From an uncultured Methanosarcinales archaeon (GTDB taxonomy: Archaea; Nanobdellota; Nanobdellia; Woesearchaeales; GW2011-AR9), in NCBI GenBank assembly GCA_964373955.1, contig CAYJXA010000006.1, positions 1,735-65,734 on the forward strand: a DNA stretch of 64,000 bases. Reading direction: 5' to 3'. The notes below the pieces were generated by a model. The model was given only the letters and a program-made list of their open reading frames with translations. It had not been told where the DNA came from and made no database searches. Positions 9,244 through 53,104 of this stretch are shown here, piece by piece (position 1 is the stretch's first letter; each line of letters starts with the position of its first letter). The translations under genes were made by a program, and so were the position numbers.

Positions 9244-9343
9244 TATTTTTGATTATGAGTTAGCAGTTCTTTTATTAAAGTTTTCCATAGAAATTACTAC
9301 CTTTAAATGGTTCTTTGCTGAGTATTTCATTTTTGTAGAAATC

Positions 9344-9351
9344 TTTATAAA
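9344..9351 (+). promoter_or_regulatory. TATA-like box (tttataaa) 24-31 nt upstream of the rpl21e ATG (leaderless-type spacing)
   Basis: Sequence and spacing only. Confidence 0.3.
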
Positions 9352-9374
9352 TCACCCTCAAAATAAAGCATATC

Positions 9375-9665: not shown

Positions 9666-9668
9666 GCA

Positions 9669-10016: not shown

Positions 10017-10075
10017 ACCTCTTTTTCATTCTGAAAAAGCGCAATTTTTATTAACTTGAACGGAAACCTTCTCCC

Positions 10076-29516: not shown

Positions 29517-29753
29517 TTATCCACAAATCTCCAGTAATTTCTGCCTACTTTTAGCTCCTGCTTTTACCTTTACTTTCATCTTGAATTCTTCTTTGAAGAA
29601 TTTGATGAGCTCTCGGTTGGCTTTATCCTTTTCCGGAACAGCATGGAGATATATCCTAAGACCATTTTCTTCTTCAACTGCTCTATTCTGAGAAGCATTC
29701 GGGATAACCTTGACTGCTATCTGATTATTTTTGATGTATTTAGTGGGATTCAT
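29517..29753 (-). CDS. DUF167 (YggU-like) protein
   Basis: IAVKVIPNASQNRAVEEENGLRIYLHAVPEKDKANRELIKFF matches the DUF167 consensus. Confidence 0.55.
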   Translation of the reverse strand: MNPTKYIKNNQIAVKVIPNASQNRAVEEENGLRIYLHAVPEKDKANRELIKFFKEEFKMKVKVKAGAKSRQKLLEICG

Positions 29754-30612
29754 GGCTAGGATGGCTAAGCTTTGTTACCAGATAAGAACGCATCCAGGAG
29801 ATGAACAGGAGAGAAACAATAAGATTCAAGATCGTCGATCCAAGTGGATAGAATTGAAGTTGCTGTTTAAATGGAAGAAGTATTCCTGTTATGATTAGAG
29901 CTACCATTACTATCAATAGAAGCATTCGCCAGATCTTACTCCAGTGGGTTTTCAAAAGGTTGAACCCTTCTCCTATGGAAATCCACACTTTGTACTTCTC
30001 GGTAAAGGCAATATAAACCAGGAAGATGAATATCAGAAGGAGCACTATCAGGATGAAACTGACCACATTGTTGAGAATAAGCAAAATCGAATCAATTACC
30101 GCAGCATATCGGAAATAAAGCGTAGCACTCGACGTTAGCAAAGTCCTGAGAAGGTATGCAGTAATAATTTTCAAAATCATGAACATTAATCCATAAAAGA
30201 GTATCGGGATTAGCATTGTTAAGTGGAGTACATTCCAACGCCAGTACATCTTGCTAGTTAGTTTTCGATGTAATAGCGTATTCCACACCACAGCTTGCTC
30301 CAATGAGAAGAGAAAGAAAAATACTATCGTGAGTATGCTGATGGCACTTATCGAAAAAAGGAGAAAGGATTTCAGCTGGGTGAAGAAAGGCAGCATTTCT
30401 TCCGGGGAACTTGAGGCCAGGAGTTGCTGAACTTCCTCTACCGTCCTGCCTCCCATTACTTCAATGGACTGATTTTGAAGGTATGTTCCAAACGTTGTAA
30501 AGATGAGTAATAGAATGACCACAAAAATGAGGTCTGCGAGAAACGTTTTCCAGAAGATTGGCTTTACTTTAAACGAATTAACAAACGAATGCAAGTGCTG
30601 ATTCATACGCAA
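29740..30612 (-). CDS. Polytopic membrane protein
   Basis: At least 6 hydrophobic helices. Confidence 0.45.
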   Translation of the reverse strand: MRMNQHLHSFVNSFKVKPIFWKTFLADLIFVVILLLIFTTFGTYLQNQSIEVMGGRTVEEVQQLLASSSPEEMLPFFTQLKSFLLFSISAISILTIVFFFLFSLEQAVVWNTLLHRKLTSKMYWRWNVLHLTMLIPILFYGLMFMILKIITAYLLRTLLTSSATLYFRYAAVIDSILLILNNVVSFILIVLLLIFIFLVYIAFTEKYKVWISIGEGFNLLKTHWSKIWRMLLLIVMVALIITGILLPFKQQLQFYPLGSTILNLIVSLLFISWMRSYLVTKLSHPSHESH

Positions 30613-30645: not shown

Positions 30646-31143
30646 TTACTCCAGCAACCCCAGTAATCCCACTAATCCCATACCTGCGCCACCAGCTACC
30701 AGGATGTATCCAGCATACGTTCCTGCATTCGCAGAACATTCTTTTTGTCCAGCGGTTCCGGCATCTTGTGCGCAGGTTTCAGAAGTTGCTAAGGCAGCGC
30801 CAAGAACCGTTGCCACTAAACCTCCGCCGAGCAGAGCCCAATCCCCGGCATGACTTTTCTTTTCTTCTGGAATTTCGGGAGCTGGTTGAACATACGCTGG
30901 TGGGGGAGCGGGAGTTTGTGTATCATACGCTAGTTTTGGTCCTTCTTTTTTTCTTGCTTTTCTTTTCTTGGGATCAATGTAATATGCTCGTCCCGGTGCG
31001 GGTTGATCTTGCTGTGGGGGGGTAGTATACGCTGGTGCCGGTTCTTGCTCTTCTTGCTGAGCTTCTGGGGGGGTAGCATACACTGGTTTAGCTGCGCCTA
31101 AGAAACTTGCGATCACCAGCGGATAGATGATTCTTTCTAACAT
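30646..31143 (-). CDS. Pro/Gln-rich secreted protein with C-terminal membrane anchor
   Basis: Signal peptide; PPAYVQPAP-type repeats; C-terminal Gly/Ala-rich TM segment. Confidence 0.45.
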   Translation of the reverse strand: MLERIIYPLVIASFLGAAKPVYATPPEAQQEEQEPAPAYTTPPQQDQPAPGRAYYIDPKKRKARKKEGPKLAYDTQTPAPPPAYVQPAPEIPEEKKSHAGDWALLGGGLVATVLGAALATSETCAQDAGTAGQKECSANAGTYAGYILVAGGAGMGLVGLLGLLE

Positions 31144-31234: not shown

Positions 31235-31696
31235 ATGGCAAGATTACTGGATAGTTTTTACAACGCTCTTCTGGGAGCAGGACTGCTAGGATTAGTTGCT
31301 TGCAGTACTCCAAGATATGCTCATCGTGATTATGATCAATTCCCCGCTGCGCGGCCAGAAATCGGACTTCATAACATAAAGCAAATTGCAGGTGATATTT
31401 GTGAAGAGTCAGCGGTAACGGAAGATGAATTTCGCTGCACAAAAAATGCCTCCATTCTCAGTAACAGATTTCCAGCAGAATGTCCAAATGGCTACACTCT
31501 TCAAGAAGGTACTTTGGGATACCAATCTTGCCGTCAGGAGATAGTCATTCTTTGGGATCGGGTAAGGAAAGTTATTCCCGGATCAAACCTTGTTGAAGTC
31601 TGCTTGGAGGATAGAACTTGCGTTCGATTGGAAAAGTTTAGAAACCGCCGACAAGCTCGGGAGTTTGCGGAAGCAATACACGCATATCTACAATAA
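31235..31696 (+). CDS. Small secreted lipoprotein-like Cys-containing protein, paralog A (divergent)
   Basis: Lipobox-like LGLVAC; conserved Cys spacing and C-terminal ...RQAREFAEAIHAYLQ shared with paralogs B and C. Confidence 0.5.
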   Translation: MARLLDSFYNALLGAGLLGLVACSTPRYAHRDYDQFPAARPEIGLHNIKQIAGDICEESAVTEDEFRCTKNASILSNRFPAECPNGYTLQEGTLGYQSCRQEIVILWDRVRKVIPGSNLVEVCLEDRTCVRLEKFRNRRQAREFAEAIHAYLQ

Positions 31697-31697
31697 A

Positions 31698-32162
31698 ATG
31701 GGAATTGATAATCTACTCGCGGCTGGGAAGAAAATTGCACTTGGTTTAGCGCTAAAAGTAGCGCTCACTTCGTGTGCAGGCGCACCAGTCTTGGCGCAGA
31801 AAAATTATGGCACTATGCCCGAGAGCCGCAGGAGAGGGGCGTATCAAGACATGGAGAGAATTCTTGCCGACATTTGTTGTTCATTGCCTTCAGACTCTTA
31901 TCCTGATTGTAAATATCTTCAAGTGAATCCGGTTGGATTCAGATGTGAACAGTTAGTTGATGCTCACATAGAAGTAGTTTCAGATTATCGTTGGGATGAG
32001 ATTGAGCAAGTAGAATGTCGAGGAAGAGAAGTTTTGATTCGAGGACAATACAACTCCAGTCCTTTATACACGAAAGGGCCAGTCTGGCAGGATACGACAC
32101 AACAATGCCGTGATTTGGCGGAAGCGATGCAGATAGTGGTAGAAGGAAGAAAAGGGAATTAA
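31698..32162 (+). CDS. Small secreted lipoprotein-like Cys-containing protein, paralog B
   Basis: ATG at 31698 (the track's 31590 start overlaps paralog A). ICCSLPSDSYPDCKYLQVNPVGFRCEQL...VECRGREVLIRGQYN...QQCRDLAEAM aligns closely to paralog C. Ends 3 nt before the convergent giant gene. Confidence 0.55.
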   Translation: MGIDNLLAAGKKIALGLALKVALTSCAGAPVLAQKNYGTMPESRRRGAYQDMERILADICCSLPSDSYPDCKYLQVNPVGFRCEQLVDAHIEVVSDYRWDEIEQVECRGREVLIRGQYNSSPLYTKGPVWQDTTQQCRDLAEAMQIVVEGRKGN

Positions 32163-32165
32163 TTA

Positions 32166-35100
32166 TTACCATCCCGCATTTCTGGTAACCTGTCCGCCTT
32201 GAACAGTACTTGCGGGAGCATTTCTTCCGGCATTGCCAAAGTTGGCTTCTCCAATGGAAGAAACGTCAACAGTGAAGCAGACATCGCCTATAGTGCTGGA
32301 TCCTGAAAATGAATCAGCAGTGGAAGGCGCTTGTTTCCATCCAATACACGCTTCTTGGAATAGGTTTGGTGAATAATGGATAATTGTATCTTTATCTGAT
32401 TGTCCGTTTCGTAATTCTATCGGTCCATTGACGTCTCCATTCCGAATATACATATGTGTTGCACCGGCATCAATTCCATCGTTAGGAGTAGTGTCAATCC
32501 ACACATTAAATGAAACAGCTACGCCATCTTCGTTAATGAAAGGAGTAAACGCTTCATCTCTCGGAGCGGAAACACCCCAGGTGATTTTATAGAAATATCC
32601 TTGTAATGGTGTGTCTTCATCCTGTTCTTGATCTCCATCTTCGTCTTTGTGACAGAAATTATTGTCTACACATACTTGCCCTGGATCACAGATGAATTCT
32701 TCTTCTGCTTCTGGATCTGGATTCCTGGCGCAAAGAATGGGGGAGGTAGTTTCAGACCGTTCCATTTGAATATTAGCAACGGCTTGATATGTTCCGGAAA
32801 CGGTTTTAATCATCGCCATTCCTTCCGGTTCTATGTCATAGTGGGCTTCGCAAATGGCAGAAGGGAACCAATTGCTTCCTAACATCGGAGCAAAGGTTTT
32901 ATCAGCATCGAATTGGAAAAGGTCTCGGTCTGTTCTGGGCAGTCCGAAGAGTCTGGTAAGTGCAGGATAGGATTTTATTTCTTTGGTTATGCCGTAAATT
33001 GCTTCGATGGAGGTTTGAGCGATAGCGAGCGAGCCTTGAGTTGCTACTCTGGTTTCTTCTAATGCCGGGGCACGTTCTCGAGCTGAGTCTTGAGCTTCCC
33101 GTCTTCTCTCCCCTAATTCCCGTTCTGCATCAGCTTCCGCTCTATGTGCTGCATCCAGTGCTGCGTCGGCAGCATCTACTTCCACTCGAGCAGCCCTTCT
33201 TGCGTCCTCGGTTGTTGCTGATGCTAACACTTCTCCTGCTTCTCCTACTCTCTTAACCTGTTCTGCGACAACTGCTGATGCTTGAACAGCCCTTTGTTCT
33301 GCTGCTTGTACCTGATTGTCATACGTATAAACCCATTGCTCACCTTGTTGTTTGTACGTTGTAATCCTTCCGTCTGAACTATGGGAAATGAAACCACCAG
33401 TATATTCTCCTTTCTCATTCCGTTGCGCAAGAATAGAGGTTCCATCGGGCTGGGTGATTCCTTCAAAACGCCCTGTAGCCGGGTTAAACATCTCGATACG
33501 TTCCAGACCACCTAACTCTGCTTCGGTTCGTCGGGGAAATTCAACTCCGGCCACCCGAGTTATTCGTGCTGTTCCTCCCTGGACTTCCACTGCTCCTACG
33601 CTTACGCCAATTCCTGCACTGCCGATACTCTCATAATCGTAATTCAATAAGAATAAAGCATTTTCATTTGCATCGTATAAAGTTCCGCCGCTGGGTCTGA
33701 AGCAGCCGTTTGAGTCGGTACAGCTACTTTCTCCTTTGGCATAATAATCACCATCGAGAACTTGTTTCTCACTCGTTTGCGTGTTGAAGATTGTTTGCGT
33801 TTCTTCCTTGAAATTAGTAATAGTTCGACTATTGCCTTGGACTGCGATTACTCCCAATTGGTTTTTGGCGTCAGCACCCTCATAATATTTCACTACTTTT
33901 CCTGATGCGAGGTCGTTGAGAGCATCCTTGTTATCTTTCCCAACGTAAAATGGATTTCCACTGAGGGTAATTGTTCCTTCTTCTTGTTGTTTAAGGGATT
34001 GGAAGGCAACCTGTTGGCCGTTTCTAATGACGTATGTTCCGGATTTGTCTTGATCTGGTTGATCTTTATCTTTTAATTGGATGATGGTAGACTTTACGGG
34101 ATCTCTGCCAACGGTAACCGTTGTTGCCACCTTTATCGTGCCTCCTGTTTTGAGAACATAATTAACGGGATCTGATTTATCCCAATCTATTTGGCTTTCA
34201 CCGTAAGTTTTATAGAGTTCTTCTCCTAATGCCCGTTGTGCTATCTCTCTGATGGAAACTACTCTCGCACCTTCCGTAGTGGGACTGGTTGTTAAGTAAG
34301 GAGCCACGCTTCCTTCCACATAAAAATAATATCCTTTTTCTGTTTCGTAAGTTCCATCAGCTTTTCTGATAACGTGGGGAGCAGATGAAAGTGATGTCGA
34401 ACTAGAAGTACCTGTTCTATCTCCAGATATGGTTAAAGTAGTTATGCTCTGCGCAAGAATAGCTTGTCGTAAAGCTTCTCCTTCTGCTCCAATGTTTTGT
34501 CCGTATCTTACCTTGTTAAGTCCATCATCGTCTGAATACCCTATTGGCATACCGGAGGAATCAATATATATTACACGGCTGTGGTCGGAATCATAGTAGC
34601 TTACGGCGTATTGGATCCCATCGATCTCTCCGCTCTCCTCAATTAGGATGTAACGACGAGATTCTCCACTGCCCGGGAGTTGAAATGAAATCTCTGGAAT
34701 AGGAGTATCAAATGTCCCTGAATCGGAAGCAGGTGAGGAGTCGTCTATTTGCTGGAATATTTGCAGTGCTGTTGTACCTGTATATTGTTGTTCAGAGAAA
34801 TCATCATTCTTAAACAAAAGCTTAAGATTTCCATTCTCTTCAGTAATTGAGAACTCTAAAGTTCTCGTACTTAACCCTGATGGATCGAAATCAACCCTTT
34901 CTCCGTTCGGGAAGACGAGGTTAGTCCCTTCTATCCTAATATTCATCTGTTGCATTAATGCCTGAGCTCGGGGTGTTATTTGAGGGATTATATGTTCAGG
35001 CGGGTTACTAACAGAAGAGGGATTAAAACTATCTCTTGCTCCTCCCTTGAAATAATCATGAAGTACAAAGCTCTGTTGATCGGCACTGGAAGAAGTGTAA

Positions 35101-35231
35101 CACCCTGTTCTACTTCTGCAAATCCAACGGGAGTTCATGCTATCATATTCCCATCCATTCACCGGCACTGCACTCACCATCATAGCACTTGCTAGTAAAA
35201 ACAATACCAATAAAGTCACCATCTTTTTCAT
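32166..35231 (-). CDS. Giant secreted protein 1 (1021 aa): signal peptide, YD-like repeats, Ala/Arg/Glu-rich helical linker, Cys-containing C-terminal domain
   Basis: Signal peptide MKKMVTLLVLFLLASAMMVSA. YD-like segment (...GEYTGGFISHSSDGRITTYKQQGEQWVYTYDNQ...). Long charged helical stretch (AARVEVDAADAALDAAHRAEADAERELGERRREAQ). C-terminal roughly 250 aa with conserved Cys. Confidence 0.65.
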   Translation of the reverse strand: MKKMVTLLVLFLLASAMMVSAVPVNGWEYDSMNSRWICRSRTGCYTSSSADQQSFVLHDYFKGGARDSFNPSSVSNPPEHIIPQITPRAQALMQQMNIRIEGTNLVFPNGERVDFDPSGLSTRTLEFSITEENGNLKLLFKNDDFSEQQYTGTTALQIFQQIDDSSPASDSGTFDTPIPEISFQLPGSGESRRYILIEESGEIDGIQYAVSYYDSDHSRVIYIDSSGMPIGYSDDDGLNKVRYGQNIGAEGEALRQAILAQSITTLTISGDRTGTSSSTSLSSAPHVIRKADGTYETEKGYYFYVEGSVAPYLTTSPTTEGARVVSIREIAQRALGEELYKTYGESQIDWDKSDPVNYVLKTGGTIKVATTVTVGRDPVKSTIIQLKDKDQPDQDKSGTYVIRNGQQVAFQSLKQQEEGTITLSGNPFYVGKDNKDALNDLASGKVVKYYEGADAKNQLGVIAVQGNSRTITNFKEETQTIFNTQTSEKQVLDGDYYAKGESSCTDSNGCFRPSGGTLYDANENALFLLNYDYESIGSAGIGVSVGAVEVQGGTARITRVAGVEFPRRTEAELGGLERIEMFNPATGRFEGITQPDGTSILAQRNEKGEYTGGFISHSSDGRITTYKQQGEQWVYTYDNQVQAAEQRAVQASAVVAEQVKRVGEAGEVLASATTEDARRAARVEVDAADAALDAAHRAEADAERELGERRREAQDSARERAPALEETRVATQGSLAIAQTSIEAIYGITKEIKSYPALTRLFGLPRTDRDLFQFDADKTFAPMLGSNWFPSAICEAHYDIEPEGMAMIKTVSGTYQAVANIQMERSETTSPILCARNPDPEAEEEFICDPGQVCVDNNFCHKDEDGDQEQDEDTPLQGYFYKITWGVSAPRDEAFTPFINEDGVAVSFNVWIDTTPNDGIDAGATHMYIRNGDVNGPIELRNGQSDKDTIIHYSPNLFQEACIGWKQAPSTADSFSGSSTIGDVCFTVDVSSIGEANFGNAGRNAPASTVQGGQVTRNAGW
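35173..35219. repeat. Direct repeat copy 1 (47 bp, 45/47 identical to 35911..35957)
   Basis: ctcaccatcatagcacttgctagtaaaaacaataccaataaagtcac. On the minus strand it encodes VTLLVLFLLASAMMVS of the giant protein 1 signal peptide. Confidence 0.9.
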
Positions 35232-35581
35232 GATCTCTTTTCCAGCAACGTTTTAATCTTCTCTATTCTCTTTTTTAATGGAGGAAGATCTTTTTTCACA
35301 ATATCCCACACCACATCCAAATCAAGGTTGAAGTAAGCGTGGATCATCCTATCACGAGTTCCAGCAATCTTTTTCCACTCTATTTCAGGATGAGACTCCT
35401 TTAAATCGGAAGAAATATTCTTTACAGCTTCCCCGATAATTTCAATCCGTCGTATAGTTGCATCTTTGGCATCTTTTGCTTCCTCAAATTCTTTTCGAGA
35501 TAATTTTTTTATCGACTCTTCGATATCGTTAATGGCATCAAGGATATGCAGTAAATAAGGAAGATTTCGGTGGACAGTCAT
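35228..35581 (-). CDS. hepT: HepT-like (DUF86) RNase toxin
   Basis: ...IGEAVKNIS...HPEIEWKKIAGTRDRMIHAYFNLDLDVVW matches the HepT/DUF86 signature (Rx4HxY). 4-nt overlap with the downstream giant gene start. Confidence 0.7.
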   Translation of the reverse strand: MTVHRNLPYLLHILDAINDIEESIKKLSRKEFEEAKDAKDATIRRIEIIGEAVKNISSDLKESHPEIEWKKIAGTRDRMIHAYFNLDLDVVWDIVKKDLPPLKKRIEKIKTLLEKRS

Positions 35582-35868
35582 AAAATCCTCACCTCATCCT
35601 TTAGAATATATTCTTTTAGATAAGGGCTTACTCCCCGATAACTAACCAAATCTACTCTTTTACCTAATTTTTTTTCCAATTCCAGTTGAAGACCAAAGAA
35701 TTCAAATCCCATGCCTTTGCGTGGTTCGATGATAATATCAACATCGCTGGTGCTCCTATGCCTACCTCTAGCGTAACTGCCAAATATGCCGGCTCTCTTA
35801 ATATGATGCTTTCGAAGCACTTCTACCACGTTTTTCTTAATTAACTCAAAATCCGGTCTTTTTTTCAT
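35578..35868 (-). CDS. mnt: MNT-type nucleotidyltransferase antitoxin
   Basis: GIFGSYARGRHRSTSDVDIII nucleotidyltransferase motif; 4-nt overlap with hepT. Confidence 0.7.
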   Translation of the reverse strand: MKKRPDFELIKKNVVEVLRKHHIKRAGIFGSYARGRHRSTSDVDIIIEPRKGMGFEFFGLQLELEKKLGKRVDLVSYRGVSPYLKEYILKDEVRIL

Positions 35869-35910
35869 ATCAGCCTCACTTCCCCATGGTAGCTCTCTCT
35901 TGCTTTAATG

Positions 35911-35957
35911 CTCACCATCATAGCACTTGCTAGTAAAAACAATACTAATAAGGTCAC
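35911..35957. repeat. Direct repeat copy 2 (47 bp)
   Basis: ctcaccatcatagcacttgctagtaaaaacaatactaataaggtcac. Lies inside a 70-aa TTG-initiated remnant ORF (35865..36077) whose stop overlaps the mnt start. Confidence 0.9.
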
Positions 35958-36141
35958 TGTCTTCGCGGGAAAATCCGGGAGATTTTCAGCGCACCCAAAA
36001 TAACCTCTTTTTATGTATTCCACAGTAAAATGTAATTCCTCTTGCTTTATATTCTTTACTATGAGATAAGAGACCAATTATATTCACTCCCAAGTAAAAA
36101 CGAGGGAAACTTTTAAAAATAACCACCCCCTGAACAAGTGC

Positions 36142-36549
36142 ATGGCGTTAACGGACATACTTAGGTCAGCGGTTCTAGGTGTTTTTCTTTCTTGTGCTGG
36201 ACCTACTTTAGCTACGAGACCATATACCTCTGCTGCTAACCCTCAGGAAAGTGCGTATCTTAACATGAGAGATATTCTTATTGATCTCTGCTGCCAATCG
36301 TTAACTGATTCTTACCCAAAGTGTAAACATTTTGAAATTGATCAACGCGGATTTAGCTGTGAGCAGCTCTTGTTTGGGCAGGGCATGAATCCTACGGCTT
36401 TTACGTGGGGTGAAATTCAGGATGTCCAATGCCGGGGAAACCGCTTAAATATTAGCGGGGAATACAATAACGACTTCATTGCTGCTAAAACTGATCGTCA
36501 ATGTCAGGATTTAGCGGGAGCGATGAGAAAGTACTTGCGATTGGAATAA
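36142..36549 (+). CDS. Small secreted lipoprotein-like Cys-containing protein, paralog C
   Basis: Lipobox-like VFLSCAG. DLCCQSLTDSYPKCKHFEIDQRGFSCEQL...VQCRGNRLNISGEYN...RQCQDLAGAM. Ends 2 nt before the convergent giant gene 2. Confidence 0.55.
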   Translation: MALTDILRSAVLGVFLSCAGPTLATRPYTSAANPQESAYLNMRDILIDLCCQSLTDSYPKCKHFEIDQRGFSCEQLLFGQGMNPTAFTWGEIQDVQCRGNRLNISGEYNNDFIAAKTDRQCQDLAGAMRKYLRLE

Positions 36550-36550
36550 C

Positions 36551-39500
36551 TTAGAGTACGCTCTCGCAATAACTTAATCCGCCTTGTTCTAAATCATCAG
36601 CGATAGTAATTATAAATGACACGGTTCCTTCAATCCAGTCTATGACATCCCAGAGGAAGTATAATAGGTTACATGCTGAAGAGAGAGTTCCTGAAACAGC
36701 ACAACTAATTCCACATCCTAAAATAGTGGCCGTGTGCGCTAAAGCGAGAGGATCTTTTAAAGCATTACGCAATAGATTAATTATTCCATCGTAGAACTGT
36801 GAAAAAGGCAGGATGTACCACAATTCGCCAATAAAATACTTGCACGTAAGCAGTCCTTCCAACTCACTGCAGCTCTCCACTGTGGCAAGATTTGCTTTGA
36901 CTTCATTCTCCAAACAATAAATTTTTCGACACTTGATTTGTCGATATTTGTCTAAATTATGAACTAACCCCGGTACACAGAGTGCGGCTATCGAGAGATA
37001 CAAATTATCATACACGCTCCGTGCCGGCTTCCATGCTTGCTGATCCTTCCCTAAGGGGGAAGTGGGACTTTTTAATATTTCAATGTTCATGAGTTGATTA
37101 TATTTTTCAGGAATCGCCCCCACCCAGGTGTCATACCACCCCAGGCCAGTATCCGCTTTACAAGATAGAATACTGAGTGGTACTGAAAGGGCTGTTGCAG
37201 CAGTGTCAGCAGTATCAACAGCTCCATTCATTCCCAGGCAAGTTGCAATCATGGAGCCGGAGGCGGGGGTTTCCCGGAGAATATTATCTGTTCCTGATTC
37301 TAGTGCATTTACAATTTTGGCTGCTCCAATAATAACAGTAGCAATCCCGGCAATATACCTCAACCACTTAATAATTTTCTCGAGCGTTCCAATGACTCCC
37401 CAGAATCCAGTGCTGGCGGCTTCTCGTTCGTTTTTAATTATCTCTTCCAAATTAGCATCAGGAGCGCCCAAAGTTGAAAAGCCAAAGGGAACACTCACCG
37501 TTACTTCCTGCAGTTCCGCTCTAGCAAGAGCATTTCCGTCAACGGCAGAAAAGATTTGGAAGGTACACATATAACCCACTTCTCGAGTGGTAAATTCTTC
37601 TCCGCCAGTTTCTGCCAAATTAAACAGAGCTACCCCGTCAAAGGGCTCAAACTCCAGCACAATCTTTGGTCGGGGAGAAGTGTCTCCTTGCGGACTTACA
37701 CCCGCGTACAGAAGTGCCCTGCTTACAACGGGAGTGGGCAATACAGTAGGAGTTGCGTTTTGATCTAATCTCCCTCCGGGAGGAGCAGCTGTTTGTTGTT
37801 GCGTCGGAACACATTCCCTCAATTCAATGTTTACTGCTTCTGCCGTTGTTCCTGATTTTTCCAAGCGGATTTCAAAAGGCATTCGCGTATAAGTAAGAGG
37901 AGCGATATCTAAATCAATGAAGTTACTGAGTCCTCCCAGCGGAACAACTCGGCTTACTTCCCAATAATCTGGATTTTCTTCAAGGCTCAATCCTAAGAGA
38001 TCAAAAGTCAGGGTGCCTTTACTATTTTGCACTGCACTCCACTCTACGTTCTTTGCGTCCGTAGGCCAAGAGTTTGCATCATTTCCAGCAGTATCTTGAA
38101 TTCTGATATCCACCCTTACTCCTCGCTCGGGGCCACTTTTGATCGGGTCCGTTATTATTTCGCAGTCCCATGCTCCGCCTTCCGCTCTTTCACAACTCTG
38201 TTCACTAAAAACTTGCCAGCCCGTTGTGGGTGAAATATCCCGGGTAAATTCATTCTCCGGAAATAAGGTTTCAGCATCCATGATGAGATCATTTGCGTTC
38301 ACTAGAATGGTGAGTCCACTACTTTCTAACGCTTTGAATTTGATTTTGAGCCGGTCATTGCTTTGGAAGTAATCTTTATCTCCAACATCGGAAACTCCAT
38401 ACGCTTCCATGGTTTCTACTTTTGGTCCAGTGGTATCTACCGCCAGTTCCAATTCTGGCTTCTCGGCCTCATTTCCAACATTATCTTCGAATTTTGAAAG
38501 CCCTATTCTGGCTACGCCGTCAGAACTAAATGTTTTGCTGGTATCCCAATAGCAACTGAAAATGGAAAGAGTTTGATTGCAAAAGGTAGGCGCTTCGGAA
38601 GAGCTCCTTCCCAGTGCATCCAGATTTGCCCTGATGCCATTTGCAGTTATTCCTGCTCCTTGCTCATCTACTGCTAACAATATCCGTTGATTGCCACTCT
38701 TTACGTAACTTTTCCCTTCAAACATCCGTTCGGTGCCAAAGAACTGTATTCGGGGAAGGGAAGTATCGCGAGTAAAACTTTCTACCAAATTCCGCTCGGC
38801 AATATTTCCAAATTCATCTTCGGCTATTATTTGCACTGAGATAGAATTCTCTCGGGGATTTACTTCCACATTGCGCCATGCACAATGCCACACTCCCACT
38901 TCGTCGGGATCTTCATCACAATCTGCTTCCTCTCCATTCAATGATGCTAATCCAGAATATCCTTTTACTACCGGAATACTTGATTCAACAATATCAAGAG
39001 TAATATCTGTTCTGGTAACAAAATTTCCCACGAATTGTCCAAAGGCAGTAAAATTAAGATTATCTTGAATTGCCGGCGCCACAAAATCAATGGGAAAACT
39101 TTGAATGGCAGATGTTCCGCTATGCCCTAGCCAATCCTGAGCTCGTATTTTTATTCGTTGTACTTGCTGCCCGGATAAACTTGCCTGGAGAATTCCCGAA
39201 AATTGCCCATCATTGAGATAATTATATTCTCGCCTTCCGGGAGCATCGATACTTATGGTTTGGAGGACGTTTCCAGTATCAGGATCAACCATCTCGATTG
39301 TCTTTATGCCCACCGAAGGGGCTCCCGACGCAATGCTATCATCAACGGTAAAATCAAGTTGGATTTTTCCTTCGCTATTCTGGCGAACATCGTGAATCTG
39401 TATTCCCGGAGCAGAACCATCCGATCTGATCACTTCTCCGTTAGAAACGGAATCAGGAACGCTTAGAGCATTGAGAAAATTATAAATGACTTGGAAGGCA

Positions 39501-39844
39501 TATTCCGCTTCGCTGATTCCATCGGTTAAGGGACTAATATATTCACAGGTTGCTCCCAGGGCAGTTTCCGTGCAGGAAGTGAAGTCAGCTTCGTTTGCTC
39601 CGATCTTAATTTTAACATCATTGGGATTGATGGCTCTATCCGGAACCCCGCTAATGGTTGCTTCAACTGTCCAAGTATCACCTTGAGCGTCGAGATATCC
39701 TCGAATTCCTGCTTCTCCTGAATTTTTGGTTATTTGAACGGAAGCAGCAAGCGCATCCGCGGAATAAACGGGAATACTAATGACTAAGGCAATGATGAAA
39801 AGTCCAACAATACTCCATCCTCTTTGAGGGTTCATCTCATCCAT
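36551..39844 (-). CDS. Giant secreted protein 2 (1097 aa) with signal peptide and about 300-aa hydrophobic Cys-rich C-terminal region
   Basis: N-terminal signal sequence GLFIIALVISIPVYSADA. Long beta-rich ectodomain. C-terminal region with several hydrophobic segments and many Cys. Start overlaps the upstream gene's end by 8 nt. Confidence 0.65.
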   Translation of the reverse strand: MDEMNPQRGWSIVGLFIIALVISIPVYSADALAASVQITKNSGEAGIRGYLDAQGDTWTVEATISGVPDRAINPNDVKIKIGANEADFTSCTETALGATCEYISPLTDGISEAEYAFQVIYNFLNALSVPDSVSNGEVIRSDGSAPGIQIHDVRQNSEGKIQLDFTVDDSIASGAPSVGIKTIEMVDPDTGNVLQTISIDAPGRREYNYLNDGQFSGILQASLSGQQVQRIKIRAQDWLGHSGTSAIQSFPIDFVAPAIQDNLNFTAFGQFVGNFVTRTDITLDIVESSIPVVKGYSGLASLNGEEADCDEDPDEVGVWHCAWRNVEVNPRENSISVQIIAEDEFGNIAERNLVESFTRDTSLPRIQFFGTERMFEGKSYVKSGNQRILLAVDEQGAGITANGIRANLDALGRSSSEAPTFCNQTLSIFSCYWDTSKTFSSDGVARIGLSKFEDNVGNEAEKPELELAVDTTGPKVETMEAYGVSDVGDKDYFQSNDRLKIKFKALESSGLTILVNANDLIMDAETLFPENEFTRDISPTTGWQVFSEQSCERAEGGAWDCEIITDPIKSGPERGVRVDIRIQDTAGNDANSWPTDAKNVEWSAVQNSKGTLTFDLLGLSLEENPDYWEVSRVVPLGGLSNFIDLDIAPLTYTRMPFEIRLEKSGTTAEAVNIELRECVPTQQQTAAPPGGRLDQNATPTVLPTPVVSRALLYAGVSPQGDTSPRPKIVLEFEPFDGVALFNLAETGGEEFTTREVGYMCTFQIFSAVDGNALARAELQEVTVSVPFGFSTLGAPDANLEEIIKNEREAASTGFWGVIGTLEKIIKWLRYIAGIATVIIGAAKIVNALESGTDNILRETPASGSMIATCLGMNGAVDTADTAATALSVPLSILSCKADTGLGWYDTWVGAIPEKYNQLMNIEILKSPTSPLGKDQQAWKPARSVYDNLYLSIAALCVPGLVHNLDKYRQIKCRKIYCLENEVKANLATVESCSELEGLLTCKYFIGELWYILPFSQFYDGIINLLRNALKDPLALAHTATILGCGISCAVSGTLSSACNLLYFLWDVIDWIEGTVSFIITIADDLEQGGLSYCESVL

Positions 39845-42185
39845 ACCTCGGTTCTAAATTTGCTCGTAATTGCTGGGAAAAGTTTCCTAGCTGCCCAATA
39901 ACTTGCAGATCTTCAAGCACTCTTAGATGTTCTTCTTCCGGAACTCCGTGAAGGTTAACACTGGGAATATAAAAAGTGATCTGATCAGTAGTATAAAGTT
40001 GTTCGGGCGTAATCCTAAGATACATTTGTTCTGTATCCCATTGTATTTGGCCCGTTAACATTTTTTCGAGCACAGTTCTATCAAACGTAAAGCAGCAGCC
40101 ACTTGCGTCAAAACAGGCAACTGATTCCATGAATCCCCCCGTACAACGCTCTTCTTCCGGGATGACTACTTCTTGTTCGCTGGTTAATAAGCCCTGCACT
40201 TTGTATATCCCGGGGACGAGTTCTACTTCCGTTGGTGAATTTCCTTGCACGGCAATGCTGGCGGTAAATTCATCGCTAAACACTCCGGGTGTGAGATCAG
40301 CAACCCTTTCTAAGATAAGTGTGCCTGTTTCACTCTCTTCGAGCGCAACCGGAGTGTTCGTGTACACCCAAGAATGAACAGAGCTTAGCATCTGTGGTTG
40401 ATACGAATAGAGTGGCTGTTGATTCGCTGAGAATAATCCTTGCGTGTAACATCTGCCGTTAATGCATTTTTCAATGTTTTTCTTTTTGATGGTTACATTA
40501 ATGAGTTTGAGTGGGTGCAATTCTATGGCTCGTTCCGCTGGGTTTAATCCCGCGACTGCATATCCCATAATGCCGGGCTGTTTCTTGAAAGTATAGGTGT
40601 CGATAGGATAAAAACTGGTGAGATAATCTTCTTTCATGAAACTTCCCACTCCGCCGTACACCGCAGGATATTTACTTTCTAATTCTCCGCGAACATTGGT
40701 TGCGCCAATGATACAGTCAGCACTTTCCGGAATGGAAAAGCCAACTTGCACTGCTTCCAGTGGGTTTAAATTGGAGCTATCCACTACAACTGTTCTAATC
40801 GGTTCCGTATTCCATTTCCGTTCATCACAGGCCATGCTGGTTCCTACCGCTGCAATCGGCGGGGGTAATACTTGTCCCGATTCAATGGGCTGATTATTTC
40901 GAATGTTCGCTTCCAGCGCAAACACAAAAGTGTAGCCTTCCCCCCCAAATGCTGCTGGATCCCTGAGCGTGATGAGAACGGGATAACTGATGTCGTATGT
41001 CGTGTAATAGTGATTGGTATTAAATTGCAGACGGCTGAAACTGGCGCCGTAACTGCTTGGCTCAATTCTTCCTCCCTTATCGTTGAGGTCAAAATACGGT
41101 TCCCACCCAAAATAATCAAAATTTACTTCCACATCATTCCCCTTCTCTAGCGGAATAATCATATTATCATAATTTTTCTGGTATAAATCGCGGAGATCTA
41201 CCACCGCCTCTTCGCTGGGCTGGTAATCATACCGATAGAAATTTGCCGCTCCCAGATACCGAAGCAGGGGCACATGGGACGTGAGTATGCCTTTCACTTT
41301 CTCTTGCACATCCGCTTCCGTCCAATATGCAGTGGGAATAAGGTCAAAGGTCACTGCTTCCGTCGGAGGAAGTTTTGCTGGATCAACCGCTGAGTACGTT
41401 GAAACCAAATCCAATGCCTGCCGTTCCAAGAAGCTATAATTTACTTCCGTTTGTGTAATTTCGTCTGCGATTTCATAGTAATGCTTGAATCGGAGCGGGA
41501 TTTTGACATAGAATTGTTCAAAAGTATGGGTAGCTTCTCCTTTGGCTGCGTCTACTTCCATTGTTAACAGGAAGTTGACACTGTTTTCTCCCACTTTTGC
41601 TTCTGTTTCAGGAAGGGAATTAATAGCAACAGTAAAGCCTTGTTCCGTGAAGGTGTTATAATTTCCCAAGCATGCAGATAAGCGTTCATTGACATACCTT
41701 CCGAGTTGCGCTTCCATGCTTAATTCAGGGTCGTCAGCATAGTGTAATTTTGGTTGCAAGGAACTAAAAGTGATTTCAGAGGCGGTATTGGGGGCAAGAT
41801 TATAATGCCAATAGGGCACTCTTGCCGGCTCTAAATTTATTCCCGGTGAGTCTGTCGGGTTGCTTTCGGAATATTCTCCCAGCAACTCTGGATGGATATA
41901 GCCTCCTTGCTGGCCAAGGACAAGCAATCCCCTTTTTCCAATCTGCGAGAGGCAATTCTCCGTATAAACATTGAGAGGAATAAAAGTTTGTGGCACTTCC
42001 GCAAGGATGGGCTCGCCTTCTGCGCTGAGTTTGCTTTTGGTAGATATTTGCGTGAAGTAAAGAATTCCCGCGAACGTAAATACCAATACAATACCTACTA
42101 TTATGAAAATAGTTACTTGCCCACGCTTAGAAGGATAAATAAGATTAGGACTACTTCTATTTCCACTCCCTCTTTTACACACCAT
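39837..42185 (-). CDS. Large membrane-anchored extracellular protein 3 (782 aa), co-operonic with giant protein 2
   Basis: N-terminal TM anchor VTIFIIVGIVLVFTFAGILYF; 8-nt overlap with the downstream gene start. Confidence 0.6.
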   Translation of the reverse strand: MVCKRGSGNRSSPNLIYPSKRGQVTIFIIVGIVLVFTFAGILYFTQISTKSKLSAEGEPILAEVPQTFIPLNVYTENCLSQIGKRGLLVLGQQGGYIHPELLGEYSESNPTDSPGINLEPARVPYWHYNLAPNTASEITFSSLQPKLHYADDPELSMEAQLGRYVNERLSACLGNYNTFTEQGFTVAINSLPETEAKVGENSVNFLLTMEVDAAKGEATHTFEQFYVKIPLRFKHYYEIADEITQTEVNYSFLERQALDLVSTYSAVDPAKLPPTEAVTFDLIPTAYWTEADVQEKVKGILTSHVPLLRYLGAANFYRYDYQPSEEAVVDLRDLYQKNYDNMIIPLEKGNDVEVNFDYFGWEPYFDLNDKGGRIEPSSYGASFSRLQFNTNHYYTTYDISYPVLITLRDPAAFGGEGYTFVFALEANIRNNQPIESGQVLPPPIAAVGTSMACDERKWNTEPIRTVVVDSSNLNPLEAVQVGFSIPESADCIIGATNVRGELESKYPAVYGGVGSFMKEDYLTSFYPIDTYTFKKQPGIMGYAVAGLNPAERAIELHPLKLINVTIKKKNIEKCINGRCYTQGLFSANQQPLYSYQPQMLSSVHSWVYTNTPVALEESETGTLILERVADLTPGVFSDEFTASIAVQGNSPTEVELVPGIYKVQGLLTSEQEVVIPEEERCTGGFMESVACFDASGCCFTFDRTVLEKMLTGQIQWDTEQMYLRITPEQLYTTDQITFYIPSVNLHGVPEEEHLRVLEDLQVIGQLGNFSQQLRANLEPRYG

Positions 42186-42258: not shown

Positions 42259-45045
42259 TTAGAAGATCCTAGAACCGTCTTTAACTCCATGGCAAATGAC
42301 CTCTTCCACTTTGCTTGCTAACTTTTTTCCTTCAAAAAAGACTCGTCCGCCACGAACGAATAATTCTAATTTTTTAAATTCTTCAAAGGTGACTTCTTTG
42401 TGACTGTTCTCCACTCCTTCGAAATGGACTTCTTCCCCGATCTTCGTTTTCTTCACTTCCAATGGAGCGACATTTTCGCGATCATCTCCCACCATAATCA
42501 TCGCTTCGGAAAGTTCCCCTCTTATTTTTGCAGGTTTCATGTTGGCACAGAAAACCACTTGTCTATTGAGCAAAAGGTCTTTAGGAATGGACTTCTTCAG
42601 TCCTGCCACTACTTGTTTTTTTCCCAGTTCCGGGCCTAAATCTACCTGCAGGAGGTATAAGCTGTCCGCATTAGGATGATCTTTCACTGCCAGGATCTTG
42701 CCTACCACTAAATACAGTGGAAATAATCGTATCTGCATCGTTGGAAGAAGTTTATACTCTCCACCATTATATTTGGTGATCAATTCGCACGCTCTCTGAA
42801 CTGCTTGTTCCATCTCTCTTTCGCTAATCTTAGTATTCCCAAAGGCAACCAAGACTAAGTTTGTCGAGTCGATAGTTGTTATAGTCTGTTTGCATTGCTT
42901 TGAAAATCTTCCGATAATCTTTTTCTTATCTGAATACACTATTTCTCCTTCTTTTAGCTTTTCGGTGGTTCCATCGAGTGATAAGAAGGACTCTCCCTCC
43001 CTGCAGAAGCGAACCTCTATATCCTCATCTAATTTAGAAAGGTCGTGGGTGGCCATGGCTATATTGCTCTCAACAGAGACGGCATTATAAAGATCAACAA
43101 CAGTATTTATTTGTGGTAATTTCCCTTTCTCACGAATTAGTTTGATGAGGTTTATAACAGCATTGGGATTTTTTCTAGAATCGACTCCAGTTTTACGATC
43201 TATGTTGGCATACTCCTCTAAAATCTCATGTCGTTCGTAGTTAGCAATATTCTTCCGGACTTCATCTTTTATTCTTTCTATTCCCTCATGTTTTTTCTTA
43301 ATGTGTACGCCACTTAGTTGAGCTACTCGTACTTTAACTCCCATCTCTTCAATGACAGGATCTACGGAATACCTGACGACTCTTACTTCTTCCGTAGTGT
43401 GGGGGGGAGTTCCCACCTCAATTTTTTCTACTAGTTTTGCAGTCGGTTTGACCTTTCCTTTCCAGTTAAAAGATAAACCATCCCAATCCCACTGTTCCTT
43501 CCCCACTGCTGCTTGAATCTTTGCAGAAAAAGCAGGAAGAATAGGGGAGACCATAATTCCCAAATCTCTTGCTACGTTTACACACCACCCCACCGCTGCT
43601 TTGTTTACAGCGTTCTGGGGATCTTTCCAGACTTCTGATTTCTGAAAATAAGCATTGCCCAAATCTGCAATTTTTAAAATATTTTTTACTGCCCCTTTAA
43701 AGTCTTCTAGGAAATAATTCTTTCTAATTTCTTCGATGAGAGATTTAATTTGTACAGTTATCTCTTGGTTTTCTGCAATAGTAGTGATGGAAGCATAATT
43801 CTTCTCCGCAAACGTCAGCACCCTATAACAGAAGTTCCCAACATTTCCCATTAAGACGTTGTTATTCAGAGCAATGAAGTCATTAAAATTTAAATCCACA
43901 TCAATCACTCTTCGATCCAAATGGCTCGCGTAAAAGAATCGCAATGATTCTGCGGGATATAACTTCAAAAAATCTTTTGCAGTGAAGAAGGTTCCCCTGC
44001 TTTTGCTCATCTTCTGCCCGTCAACGGTAATGAATCCATGCACCGTGAGCGCTGGCAAAGGAATATTCATGGCCATGAGCATTGCTGGCCAAAATAAGAA
44101 ATGGAAATAAGAAATGTCCTTGCCAATGAAGTGGTGTACTTTGCCTTTAATCCAGTACTCTTCCCATTTTACTTTCTTCCGATCACAATAATTTTTCGTT
44201 GAAGAAATGTAGCCGATGGGTGCATCCATCCACACATAAAAATACTTAACTTCCCCGGTTTCATCTTTGCTGCCGGGAATTTCAAAGCCAAAATAAGGAG
44301 CATCCCGGGAAATACACCAGTCTTCCAATCCTTTCGTTATCCATTCTTTCAGCCAATTGCGCACTTCCGGCTGTAAATGCGCAGTAGGAGAAGTTATCCA
44401 TTGTTCTAATCTCTTAGAAAAAGCACTTAATTTGAAAAAGTAATGCTCGCTTTCCTTCTGGATTGGTGTTCTCCCACAGAGAGCACATTTTGGATTGATG
44501 AGATCGTTCCCCTTCAAGACGCTGCTGCAGCTCTCGCAAACGTCTCCATATTGATCCAGGGTGGTGCAGTAAGGGCAGGTTCCTTTAACATAACGGTCTG
44601 GCAAGGAACGGGCGCAGTGCTCGCAGTAAATTACATTAATTTTTTTTGTGGAAATGTACCCTTGTTTTTTAAGCTCGGTAAAAAAATGTTCCGCCAGTTC
44701 TTTGTTCTCAGGTGAATGGGTTTTGTAATAATTATCAAATTGAATTAGAAAAGAAGCAAAATCCTGCTGATGATCTTTCCAAAACTCATTGGCGAACTTT
44801 TCCGGATCCTTTTTTGCTTTGGCAGCATTTACTTCGATGGGAGTGCCATGCATATCGGAAGCGCAAATGTAAAGTGCATCTTTTCCTTGCAATTTGAGGA
44901 AGCGAGTGTAGATATCTGCCTGGATGTATTCTAAAAGATGGCCGATATGGATAGGACCATTAGCGTAAGGGAGAGCAGCAGTAACTATAATTTTTTCATC
45001 CTTTTTTGTACTGTTTTTTTTGCCGGTTGCCGCTGCTTTCTTCAT
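42259..45045 (-). CDS. metG: Methionyl-tRNA synthetase with extended C-terminus (B3/4-like plus EMAP/Trbp111-like tRNA-binding domains)
   Basis: HIGH-type motif PYANGPIHIGH, KMSKS, Zn knuckle CEHC...CPYC. C-terminal ...VAVKDHPNADSLYLLQVDLG... OK-fold tRNA-binding motif. An extra roughly 200-aa module between them. 928 aa in total. Confidence 0.8.
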   Translation of the reverse strand: MKKAAATGKKNSTKKDEKIIVTAALPYANGPIHIGHLLEYIQADIYTRFLKLQGKDALYICASDMHGTPIEVNAAKAKKDPEKFANEFWKDHQQDFASFLIQFDNYYKTHSPENKELAEHFFTELKKQGYISTKKINVIYCEHCARSLPDRYVKGTCPYCTTLDQYGDVCESCSSVLKGNDLINPKCALCGRTPIQKESEHYFFKLSAFSKRLEQWITSPTAHLQPEVRNWLKEWITKGLEDWCISRDAPYFGFEIPGSKDETGEVKYFYVWMDAPIGYISSTKNYCDRKKVKWEEYWIKGKVHHFIGKDISYFHFLFWPAMLMAMNIPLPALTVHGFITVDGQKMSKSRGTFFTAKDFLKLYPAESLRFFYASHLDRRVIDVDLNFNDFIALNNNVLMGNVGNFCYRVLTFAEKNYASITTIAENQEITVQIKSLIEEIRKNYFLEDFKGAVKNILKIADLGNAYFQKSEVWKDPQNAVNKAAVGWCVNVARDLGIMVSPILPAFSAKIQAAVGKEQWDWDGLSFNWKGKVKPTAKLVEKIEVGTPPHTTEEVRVVRYSVDPVIEEMGVKVRVAQLSGVHIKKKHEGIERIKDEVRKNIANYERHEILEEYANIDRKTGVDSRKNPNAVINLIKLIREKGKLPQINTVVDLYNAVSVESNIAMATHDLSKLDEDIEVRFCREGESFLSLDGTTEKLKEGEIVYSDKKKIIGRFSKQCKQTITTIDSTNLVLVAFGNTKISEREMEQAVQRACELITKYNGGEYKLLPTMQIRLFPLYLVVGKILAVKDHPNADSLYLLQVDLGPELGKKQVVAGLKKSIPKDLLLNRQVVFCANMKPAKIRGELSEAMIMVGDDRENVAPLEVKKTKIGEEVHFEGVENSHKEVTFEEFKKLELFVRGGRVFFEGKKLASKVEEVICHGVKDGSRIF

Positions 45046-52264: not shown

Positions 52265-53014
52265 CTACTCCAATTCAAATTCAACTTCTCTGATTCCTCC
52301 CTCAAATGATTGAAACAGGATGGAGTTAATGGTGATCGTAACACCGGAAGAATAAGTAAAACTGTCTCCTTCTCCTAGCCAATCGCCGCGTTGCCCATTT
52401 AAGGTAATCCTAGCTTGGCCTTGCTCCATCGTGTAAATGCTTACGGAATATTCAGTGCCTCCCACTTCTACTGTGACTGTCTCCCCAGCACTCACGGTAT
52501 TAAAATTCTGTTGTGGAGGCGGGTTTGAGGAAGAGCTTGCGGTTTCATTTTGAGTTTCTGTCCTAGTACTGGATGCATTTTTACATTGTGCGTTTTCACA
52601 GCCATAATCACATTTAGTTTCTGAAATCCAAGAGCAATCTTCTAGCTGATATCCTTTGACATAATTTCCGTGGCATTTAAAGCCCACGGTGCAGCTTGGA
52701 GGCGAACGGCATGTTCCATTGGTGCAACCAAATCTACAATCCTGCCGCTGGCCAAAACTGCAATTCTCATATCGATACATTTTCTGGGTAGAACTCAGAC
52801 AAACCCACGCAGCAGGGCATAATCCTGTAGGTGTATTGATGGTGTTCTGTTCTTCTAATTCCGCGGAATCTGCGGTTTCATTTGGCGGCATGCTTGCAGA
52901 ATCTAGGGGTACGTCATCTGTTGCCTGCTCTTGTTCGTTAACGGTTTCAGAAGTGCAACTAAGCACGAGTAGAAATAAGATCATTAGTAAAATACTAGGA
53001 GCTTTCATATCCAT
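52265..53014 (-). CDS. Secreted Cys-rich protein (about 250 aa)
   Basis: Start reassigned to MDMKAPSILLMILFLLVLSC (signal peptide). Repeated C...C.FGC.NG.C and C.YGCENAQC modules. Confidence 0.5.
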   Translation of the reverse strand: MDMKAPSILLMILFLLVLSCTSETVNEQEQATDDVPLDSASMPPNETADSAELEEQNTINTPTGLCPAAWVCLSSTQKMYRYENCSFGQRQDCRFGCTNGTCRSPPSCTVGFKCHGNYVKGYQLEDCSWISETKCDYGCENAQCKNASSTRTETQNETASSSSNPPPQQNFNTVSAGETVTVEVGGTEYSVSIYTMEQGQARITLNGQRGDWLGEGDSFTYSSGVTITINSILFQSFEGGIREVEFELE

Positions 53015-53104
53015 CCTCTTTAGGGGAAGTAAGTCTAAATCATTTAAATATGTTCCTTTTTTTCTGACAGAAACCTTATAAAATAATAGGCATATGAGGG
53101 AGAA

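Follow-up and report, generated by a model that had tools for sequence, protein, structure and literature searches.

A family of small, probably lipid-anchored proteins encoded within a conserved envelope gene cluster of Woesearchaeota

We analyzed a stretch of 64,000 nucleotides of archaeal DNA, in the following called the window, which comprises positions 1,735 to 65,734 of contig CAYJXA010000006.1 (assembly GCA_964373955.1). The assembly is deposited as an uncultured Methanosarcinales archaeon and its GTDB lineage places it in the Woesearchaeales (GW2011-AR9). About the middle of the window three small genes, here called A, B and C, are found next to genes for large proteins, which we call G1, G2 and G3 (Table 1). 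A preliminary description of this DNA, made from the sequence alone, had reported three small paralogous proteins with lipobox-like signal peptides, paired tail-to-tail with giant secreted protein genes at two independent loci. The three small open reading frames (ORFs) are indeed present on the plus strand, carry the lipobox-like sequences LVAC (A), LTSC (B) and FLSC (C) and contain seven cysteines each. The tail-to-tail arrangement is also as described, since the stop codons of B and G1 are separated by 3 nt and those of C and G2 by 1 nt, and G1 as well as G2 starts with a hydrophobic signal-like segment. From our searches the small proteins appear to constitute an unannotated and undescribed family of small exported proteins of 110-180 aa which is found almost only in Woesearchaeota (DPANN archaea). 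Their genes lie within one conserved envelope gene cluster.

Table 1. Genes and promoter-like elements of the envelope cluster, in window coordinates. HMM, hidden Markov model.
Feature	Position	Strand	Description	Basis
290-like protein	29740..30612	-	290 aa, six predicted transmembrane segments, downstream of the 165-like gene	
165-like membrane protein	30646..31143	-	165 aa, divergent from A	ORF list, jackhmmer
TATA-like box AACTTTTAAATAAA	31201..31214	+	~28 nt before the start codon of A	read from the sequence
Small lipoprotein A (probable)	31235..31696	+	153 aa, A-type	ORF list, family HMM E = 1.7e-36
Small lipoprotein B (probable)	31698..32162	+	154 aa, B/C-type	ORF list
G1	32166..35231	-	1021 aa, predicted to be secreted	ORF list, signal-like N-terminus
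HepT-like RNase toxin	35228..35581	-	4-nt overlap with the start of G1	Pfam PF01934, E = 2.3e-29
MNT-type nucleotidyltransferase antitoxin	35578..35868	-	4-nt overlap with HepT	PF18765/PF01909, E = 3e-13 and 5e-11
TATA-like box AAACTTTTAAAAATAA	36107..36122	+	~27 nt before the start codon of C	read from the sequence
Small lipoprotein C (probable)	36142..36549	+	135 aa, B/C-type, duplicate of B	ORF list
G2	36551..39844	-	1097 aa, signal-like N-terminus	ORF list
G3	39837..42185	-	782 aa, N-terminus KRGQVTIFIIVG...	ORF list

B and C are clearly related and share 40% identity across 123 aa in a pairwise BLAST comparison (E = 1e-28). For A the same method gives a match to the N-terminal 66 aa of C only (E = 4e-4) and none to B. 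At the profile level, however, A-type and B/C-type proteins align over 134 columns with a probability of 99.6% (hhalign, E = 2.4e-24), and A-type proteins are retrieved by the B/C profile. Judged by these profiles, A is a true but distant member of the B/C family. The paralogy of all three proteins is therefore evident by BLAST for B and C and becomes visible for A with profiles. Likewise, the CRG...QC pattern which had been ascribed to all three proteins is present in B and C, whereas A reads VIPGS...RQA at those positions.

With the B/C profile, which was built from eight B/C-type proteins, a word-indexed search of 5.8 billion proteins found 8 proteins, and HMMER retrieved 47 clusters from 1.84 billion representative proteins, all with a length of 112-179 aa. 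These clusters include a second subfamily with the C-terminus RQAxDFAEAMxxYL, similar to the C-terminal motif RQAxEFAEAIxxYL of A. Those contigs with family members that carry a title are mostly metagenome-assembled genomes of Woesearchaeota, and Nanoarchaeota are also named. A, B and C have no match in Pfam, NCBIfam, PHROGs or PADLOC, none of 55 family members gives a significant match in Pfam, and the family profile returned only noise from the PDB sequences, that is, chance matches to HRas at E = 0.1 or worse. The profile searches of Pfam, NCBIfam and PDB thus tie the cysteine pattern to no known unrelated family, in agreement with the preliminary description. No relatives were found in two scans of 2.9 million IMG/VR contigs. 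In the literature we did not find a description of the small-protein family or of the envelope cluster.

Within the alignment of 55 members the lipobox cysteine is invariant (55 of 55) and, besides Met1, forms the only invariant column. It is located between residues 10 and 44, namely at Cys23 in A, Cys26 in B and Cys18 in C. The residue at position -1 is serine, alanine or glycine in 49 of the 55 members, and leucine dominates at positions -3 and -2. The family therefore displays what defines a lipobox, a hydrophobic signal core ending in an invariant cysteine at +1. The cysteine count is odd (7 or 5) in 41 members, which fits one lipidated cysteine plus two or three disulfides, and we infer that the small proteins contain disulfides. 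Lipoproteins have been predicted to be prevalent in DPANN archaea, and the lipidation enzyme AliA was found there, albeit with gaps (PMC12462473). A functional lipobox is therefore plausible, and we suggest that A, B and C are probably lipid-anchored at the invariant cysteine. Directly after this cysteine follows a well conserved motif, YA(K/R)RDYDxYPxxxxEIAlyN, which in A corresponds to window positions 31304-31360 and which lies mostly within the unfolded part of the structural model described next. Such conservation is unusual for a lipoprotein tether, and the motif may be a recognition, sorting or binding element.

An AlphaFold2 model of C, calculated from an alignment of 8 sequences, has a mean predicted local distance difference test score (pLDDT) of 76 and a predicted template modelling (pTM) score of 0.66. 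In the model a helix at the N-terminus is followed by six strands and by a further helix at the C-terminus. In the PDB, nearly all of the best Foldseek matches of this model are PH or FERM-F3 domains; the matches are weak, with E = 9e-3 or worse and TM scores of 0.3-0.5. With this weak support we predict for the domain of the small proteins a PH-like beta-sandwich which the C-terminal helix closes. None of the proteins reaches the gathering threshold of a bPH_* family of Pfam. A, B and C give no match to these families, and below the threshold one of the 55 members matches bPH_6 (E = 0.018) and another single member FERM_C.

The start codon of B is backed by two homologs, P0003 and P0004, whose first residue is at the corresponding position. 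Since this ATG follows 1 nt past the stop codon of A, both genes probably form one operon. The sequences upstream of A and C share the form AACTTTTAAA(A)ATAA, which we take to be an archaeal TATA-like box. Their distance to the start codons suggests that the transcripts of A and C are leaderless or have a short leader.

The large protein G1 has no hydrophobic segment apart from the signal-like one at its N-terminus. Its N-terminal part, which varies between loci in length and sequence, is followed by a charged stretch rich in alanine, glutamate and arginine and then by a conserved C-terminal domain of about 290 aa (residues ~734-1021). This domain is 30-87% identical across loci and features six invariant cysteines and the motif YxYKI(T/S)WGV(T/S)APxD. 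The very C-terminal tail is conserved, too, as ...S.GG(Q/E)V.R...W. Used at full length as a homology query, G1 matched itself alone because its low-complexity stretch took up all candidates. A profile limited to the C-terminal domain retrieved ten proteins, and all of those with a named source are hypothetical proteins of Woesearchaeota or Nanoarchaeota. The domain is modelled as a beta-sandwich (pLDDT 68.5), and in the fold search this model gave weak matches to generic beta-sandwiches (PsaA, integrin, ApaG, Wzt).

G2 is not a paralog of G1. Paired cysteines are found along its ectodomain, and the best conserved part is formed by the C-terminal ~300 aa (window positions 36551-37450), which are 28-86% identical across loci. 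This region is rich in cysteine and hydrophobic, with one predicted transmembrane segment (830-848), 27 invariant columns including seven cysteines, and the motif RQIKCRKIYC. It may be a membrane-embedded or membrane-active domain. Neither G2 nor the profile of its C-terminal region has a match in Pfam or PDB.

G3 overlaps the start of G2 by 8 nt and is 89% identical in locus L002 and 46% identical in L018 (for the loci see below). Its N-terminal motif KRGQVTIFIIVGIVLVF is kept in the orthologs of L020 (3124-5061) and L021 (5064-6401), and the G3 orthologs, proteins of 445-782 aa, share the N-terminal motif KRGQ(V/I)T(I/V)FI(I/L)(I/V)G. This N-terminus is presumably similar to the class III (type IV pilin-like) signal peptides of archaea or to a membrane anchor. 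G3 has no match to a pilin family of Pfam, and genes for a pilus machinery (ATPase, platform) are absent from the window. Searches of the PDB sequences with G1, G2 and G3 gave nothing or chance HRas matches at E = 0.1 or worse. Besides the toxin-antitoxin pair, all eight proteins of the cluster are without a match in Pfam, NCBIfam, PHROGs and PADLOC, and the viral structure library BFVD yielded no significant match.

For comparison we gathered 26 loci (L001 to L026) by look-ups of exact proteins and by pattern scans of genome and metagenome collections. Their ORFs were labelled with HMMs for the small family, for the C-terminal regions of G1 and G2 and for the 165-like protein; BLAST comparisons with the remaining proteins of the window completed the labelling. 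In L001, a more distant relative, an A-type gene and a single B/C-type gene are followed by a convergent G1 and then directly by G2; the C-terminal domain of G1 is 56% and G2 51% identical to the window. G1, G2 and G3 are consecutive in L018. L020 contains G3, G2, G1, the 290-like gene and a PF1765-like gene on one strand, beside the gene for methionyl-tRNA synthetase (MetRS). In L023 a C-type gene is located between G2 and the start of G1 without a toxin-antitoxin pair. All these loci represent one conserved envelope cluster with the order G3-G2-G1...290, and the window has the same cluster with C and the HepT/MNT genes between G2 and G1. As G2 and G1 are adjacent in L001, L018 and L020, the two pairings in the window belong to one cluster, and the idea of two independent loci has to be given up; C is a lineage-specific duplicate of B. 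The B/C-type protein of L001 is about equally similar to B (39%) and to C (37%), so that the duplication is dated at or after the split from L001. Orthologs of A are 61% identical in L003 and 34% in L001.

How regular is the neighborhood of small and large genes? A convergent gene with the C-terminal domain of G1 lies downstream in 10 of the 11 distinct A/B loci for which enough downstream sequence is available; the exception is L008. G1 is directly adjacent in five loci, with gaps of 3 nt (window), 2 nt (L001), 9 nt (L003), 37 nt (L012) and 7 nt (L017), and between one and four genes are inserted before G1 in L011, L013, L015, L016 and L018. Identity of the small proteins among the A/B loci with G1 drops to about 25-35%. 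The C-type genes face a convergent G2 in four of four cases (window, L002, L023 and L024, with gaps of 1, 1, 32 and 1 nt). The outer flanks vary by lineage, with MetRS and dCMP deaminase genes in some and a ribosomal protein operon in others, so that the linkage between the small genes and G1 goes beyond residual synteny. That small and large genes occur together is no coincidence. The proposed pairing is thus recurrent in these loci but not obligatory, as will be seen below.

The most constant neighbor of the small genes is not a large gene but the 165-like gene. With the sole exception of L017, jackhmmer finds it right next to the A-type gene, in divergent orientation, wherever upstream sequence of a small-gene locus is available. 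The 165-like protein has a signal-like N-terminus, a proline-rich spacer and a C-terminal pair of transmembrane segments which flanks two cysteines. Orthologs occur in L010-L013 and L018, among others, and most relatives carry a conserved PCPPYLPxC motif in the spacer, which the protein of the window does not. The orthologs of L010, L012 and L013 have a lipobox-like N-terminus, LSVGMSGC. For the 290-like protein no match was found in Pfam or NCBIfam.

Between G1 and C the window contains adjacent genes for a HEPN-type RNase and a minimal nucleotidyltransferase (MNT), the combination that defines a type VII HepT/MNT toxin-antitoxin system. Judged by the 4-nt overlaps, MNT, HepT and G1 read as one translationally coupled unit. 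Pairs of nucleotidyltransferase and HEPN-type genes recur within the cluster in L001, L013, L018, L022, L024, L025 and L026. Their position differs, as some lie between G2 and G1, some separate G1 from the 290-like gene or the small gene from G1, and some are located upstream of G2. This recurrence may be by chance, as such modules are common, or the cluster may be a preferred landing site.

The wider window contains archaeal markers, namely Nre, DUF655, an ELP3-like radical SAM (S-adenosylmethionine) protein and RtcB. Its MetRS (42259-45045, minus strand, 928 aa) carries a B3/4 domain (PF03483, residues 626-760, E = 1e-20), which is otherwise known from the beta subunit of PheRS. Here it follows the anticodon-binding region and precedes the C-terminal tRNA-binding domain. 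The MetRS orthologs of L002 and L020 align in two pieces which skip this segment of ~220 aa, and the N-terminal part of the L020 protein is ~68% identical; the B3/4 segment therefore looks like a recent insertion. Two further ORFs on the minus strand, 50467-52197 (576 aa) and 52265-53185 (306 aa), have the lipobox-like sequences LLIIAC and LLVLSC and no Pfam match, which suggests that lipoproteins are common in this organism. Additional candidate surface proteins are encoded by an ORF of 925 aa without a Pfam match (19735-22512, plus strand) and by a gene for a PKD-domain protein of 499 aa (17406-18905, minus strand). Two contigs with the cluster are binned elsewhere, L009 (MFTJ01000053.1) with the bacterium Candidatus Nomurabacteria and L010 (CAYSCV010000026.1) with Methanosarcinales. 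The genes of L009 are identical to those of the metagenome contigs L013 and L014, which have a Woesearchaeota-type cluster. Both contigs, L009 and L010, are probably mis-binned.

We tentatively suggest, with a confidence that stays just short of even, that A, B and C are members of a family of small surface lipoproteins which serve as docking or assembly partners of the large envelope proteins. The small proteins would be exported by the Sec pathway, cleaved at the lipobox and tethered through a lipid on the invariant cysteine to the outer face of the membrane. The mature protein would then combine a conserved tether, YA(K/R)RDYDxYP, with a compact domain stabilized by disulfides. Together with the 165-like gene the small genes form a module which occupies the junction of G1 and the 290-like gene. 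Within this scheme A and B would be the partners of G1, a protein with a signal peptide that lacks an anchor in the membrane, and C as a duplicate of B would be specialized for G2. The whole complex could be a cell-surface apparatus of small-celled archaea, possibly for host contact. Strand addition is the usual way in which PH, PTB and FERM-F3 domains bind peptides or tails. A natural candidate ligand of the PH-like domain is therefore the conserved tail at the C-terminus of G1, which at present is speculation by analogy. A receptor or chaperone relation between the small and the large proteins, as raised in the preliminary description, or a docking relation is in our view plausible. One could go further and imagine that the small PH-like lipoproteins are dedicated receptors which catch the C-terminal domains of anchorless or loosely anchored adhesins, that with the 165-like protein, the 290-like protein and G3 they make up a Woesearchaeota-specific surface machine for host attachment or exchange, and that the duplication of B into C created new specificities. 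This extended version we consider rather improbable.

Several observations weigh against the docking explanation and its premises. In L019, L020, L021 and L022 G1 is followed by the 290-like gene on the same strand, with a gap of 2 nt in L019 and with toxin-antitoxin genes in between in L022, and neither small genes nor a 165-like gene are present. Also a six-frame HMM search revealed no ORF of the small family in these four loci. Their G1 proteins are 57, 47, 37 and 33% identical to that of the window and thus interleave with those of the loci with small genes (56 down to 30%), which argues for secondary loss, relocation or repeated gain and not for a deep split. The C-terminal tails of G1 do not differ between loci with and without small genes, and G1 therefore does not obviously need a small partner encoded next to it. 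These genomes could encode the small partner elsewhere. Conversely, locus L008 (JACPND010000020.1, Woesearchaeota) has five tandem small lipobox-like genes at 8956-10978, two of which belong to the family, and there is no G1 or G2 within about 8.5 kb. On the other side of these tandem genes an unrelated secreted protein of 1441 aa is encoded. Small and large genes are also unequal in number; in L018, for example, a single small gene accompanies three large genes. With its own hydrophobic C-terminal domain G2 would not need an anchor. The strict lipobox pattern [LVI][ASTVI][GAS]C is matched by only 18 of the 55 family members, among them A and B but not C with its FLSC. Many of the other members read LL[SAG]C or FLSC, forms which looser lipobox rules accept. 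The PH-like assignment is weak and was obtained from the alignment of 8 sequences. Finally, all sequences are derived from metagenomes, and some of the loci are duplicate copies of one sequence.

Two other explanations remain serious. The first, which we regard as doubtful, is that the small lipoproteins share a neighborhood or a regulon with the large proteins without binding them, the junction of G1 and the 290-like gene being a tolerated insertion site in an island of surface genes. Insertions of unrelated genes do recur in the cluster, among them HepT/MNT and the other nucleotidyltransferase pairs, a DUF2283 gene and genes for proteins of 115, 410, 242 and 316 aa. The direct junction of G1 with the 290-like gene, the array of L008 and the unmatched gene numbers point the same way. 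However, exactly the same junction and orientation are kept even in lineages with different outer flanks whose small proteins share no more than 25-35% identity. Moreover, the duplicate C lies beside the second large gene and this position is held in four distinct sequences.

According to the second, which we judge unlikely, the small lipoproteins have their actual partner in the divergently encoded 165-like membrane protein, perhaps together with the 290-like protein, and the nearness to the large genes is secondary. The constancy of the divergent arrangement beside the A-type gene argues for this, as does the absence of the 165-like gene from all four loci without small genes. Both genes have a short intergenic region in common, which fits a shared divergent promoter. 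Furthermore, the 165-like protein offers surfaces for such an interaction, namely the extracytoplasmic proline-rich segment with PCPPYLPxC in most relatives and the loop with the cysteines. Yet a partnership with the 165-like protein is compatible with an additional link to G1 or G2, and the C-type genes are located away from the 165-like gene beside G2.

Three further explanations are poorly supported. The pairing could serve antisense regulation, with convergent transcripts that overlap at their 3' ends and control each other, as the preliminary description had also suggested. Gaps of 1-3 nt leave no space for separate terminators, and the 3' ends of the transcripts probably overlap. But such gaps are common in this DNA, which has a coding density of 91%. 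Its 15 convergent gene pairs have a median gap of 3 nt, several of them overlap, and with the overlapping pairs included, 11 of the 15 do not exceed a gap of 22 nt. The tight spacing of 1-3 nt is the norm in the window and uninformative on an antisense relation. In other loci the small gene and G1 are separated by one to four genes or by up to 37 nt, and the neighborhood is still kept. We therefore consider antisense control as very unlikely.

It is even less probable that the large proteins are polymorphic toxins or effectors from which the small lipoproteins protect the cell. As in the toxin/immunity systems of the contact-dependent inhibition (CDI) and Rhs type, the gene for a large secreted protein has a small gene right at its 3' end, and this arrangement is found twice. 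In those systems, however, the C-terminus of the large protein varies, whereas G1 has a conserved C-terminal domain and a variable N-terminus. The small genes are convergent and not located downstream on the same strand. Neither a toxin domain nor one of the Rhs, CDI or defence type was revealed by searches of Pfam, NCBIfam and PADLOC. The model of the C-terminal domain of G1 is a generic beta-sandwich, and G1 exists without an adjacent small gene, so that adjacency is optional. The immunity-like partnership considered in the preliminary description is thus not borne out. Equally improbable is that the cluster is carried by a virus or mobile element, in which case the large proteins would have a structural or adhesive role and the small lipoproteins would be exclusion factors. 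The toxin-antitoxin genes inside the cluster and the lack of known homologs speak for this; against it are the missing matches in PHROGs, 2.9 million IMG/VR contigs and BFVD, the housekeeping surroundings in several lineages (MetRS, SAM synthetase, dCMP deaminase, ribosomal proteins) and the absence of an integrase or tRNA gene near the cluster.

Returning to docking at the cell surface, the proteins may be compared with systems that have been described. The archaeal lipobox lipoproteins, studied with AliA and AliB in Haloferax volcanii (PMC12462473, PMC2945643), share with A, B and C the hydrophobic N-terminal signal, the small residue, the invariant cysteine and the extracytoplasmic location. 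In contrast, the mature domain of A, B and C is unrelated to that of any described lipoprotein, the signal is of the Sec type and not of the Tat type, the sequence after the cysteine is conserved, which is unusual, and lipidation is predicted here from the sequence. With the PH-like superfold, as found in eukaryotic PH, PTB and FERM-F3 domains and in bacterial bPH domains such as PF10756, the small proteins have in common the predicted beta-sandwich and the closing C-terminal helix. They differ by the lack of a significant sequence match and by weak structural scores (E ~1e-2, TM 0.3-0.5); moreover, they are predicted to be extracellular, disulfide-bonded and lipid-anchored and have an extra N-terminal helix. 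The SPEARE proteins of Nanohaloarchaeum are large DPANN surface proteins of several thousand aa which are proposed to mediate host contact. Similar to these, the cluster described here encodes large secreted or membrane proteins which are lineage-specific, belong to small-celled and probably host-dependent archaea and are organized in conserved clusters. We found no sequence relation to the SPEARE proteins, G1-G3 are smaller with about 800-1100 aa, and they contain no protease, lectin or other recognizable domain.

In summary, we define a lineage-restricted family of probable lipoproteins together with a cluster of three large and two membrane proteins, none of which matches a curated family or a solved structure. 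The family is new by sequence but familiar in kind, that is, small surface lipoproteins encoded within an envelope gene cluster. Woesearchaeota are abundant and uncultivated archaea with small genomes which are thought to depend on other cells. If the docking relation is true, a clear case from the DPANN archaea would be added to the recently opened field of archaeal lipoprotein biogenesis, and the cluster would be a concrete candidate for the apparatus by which Woesearchaeota contact their hosts.

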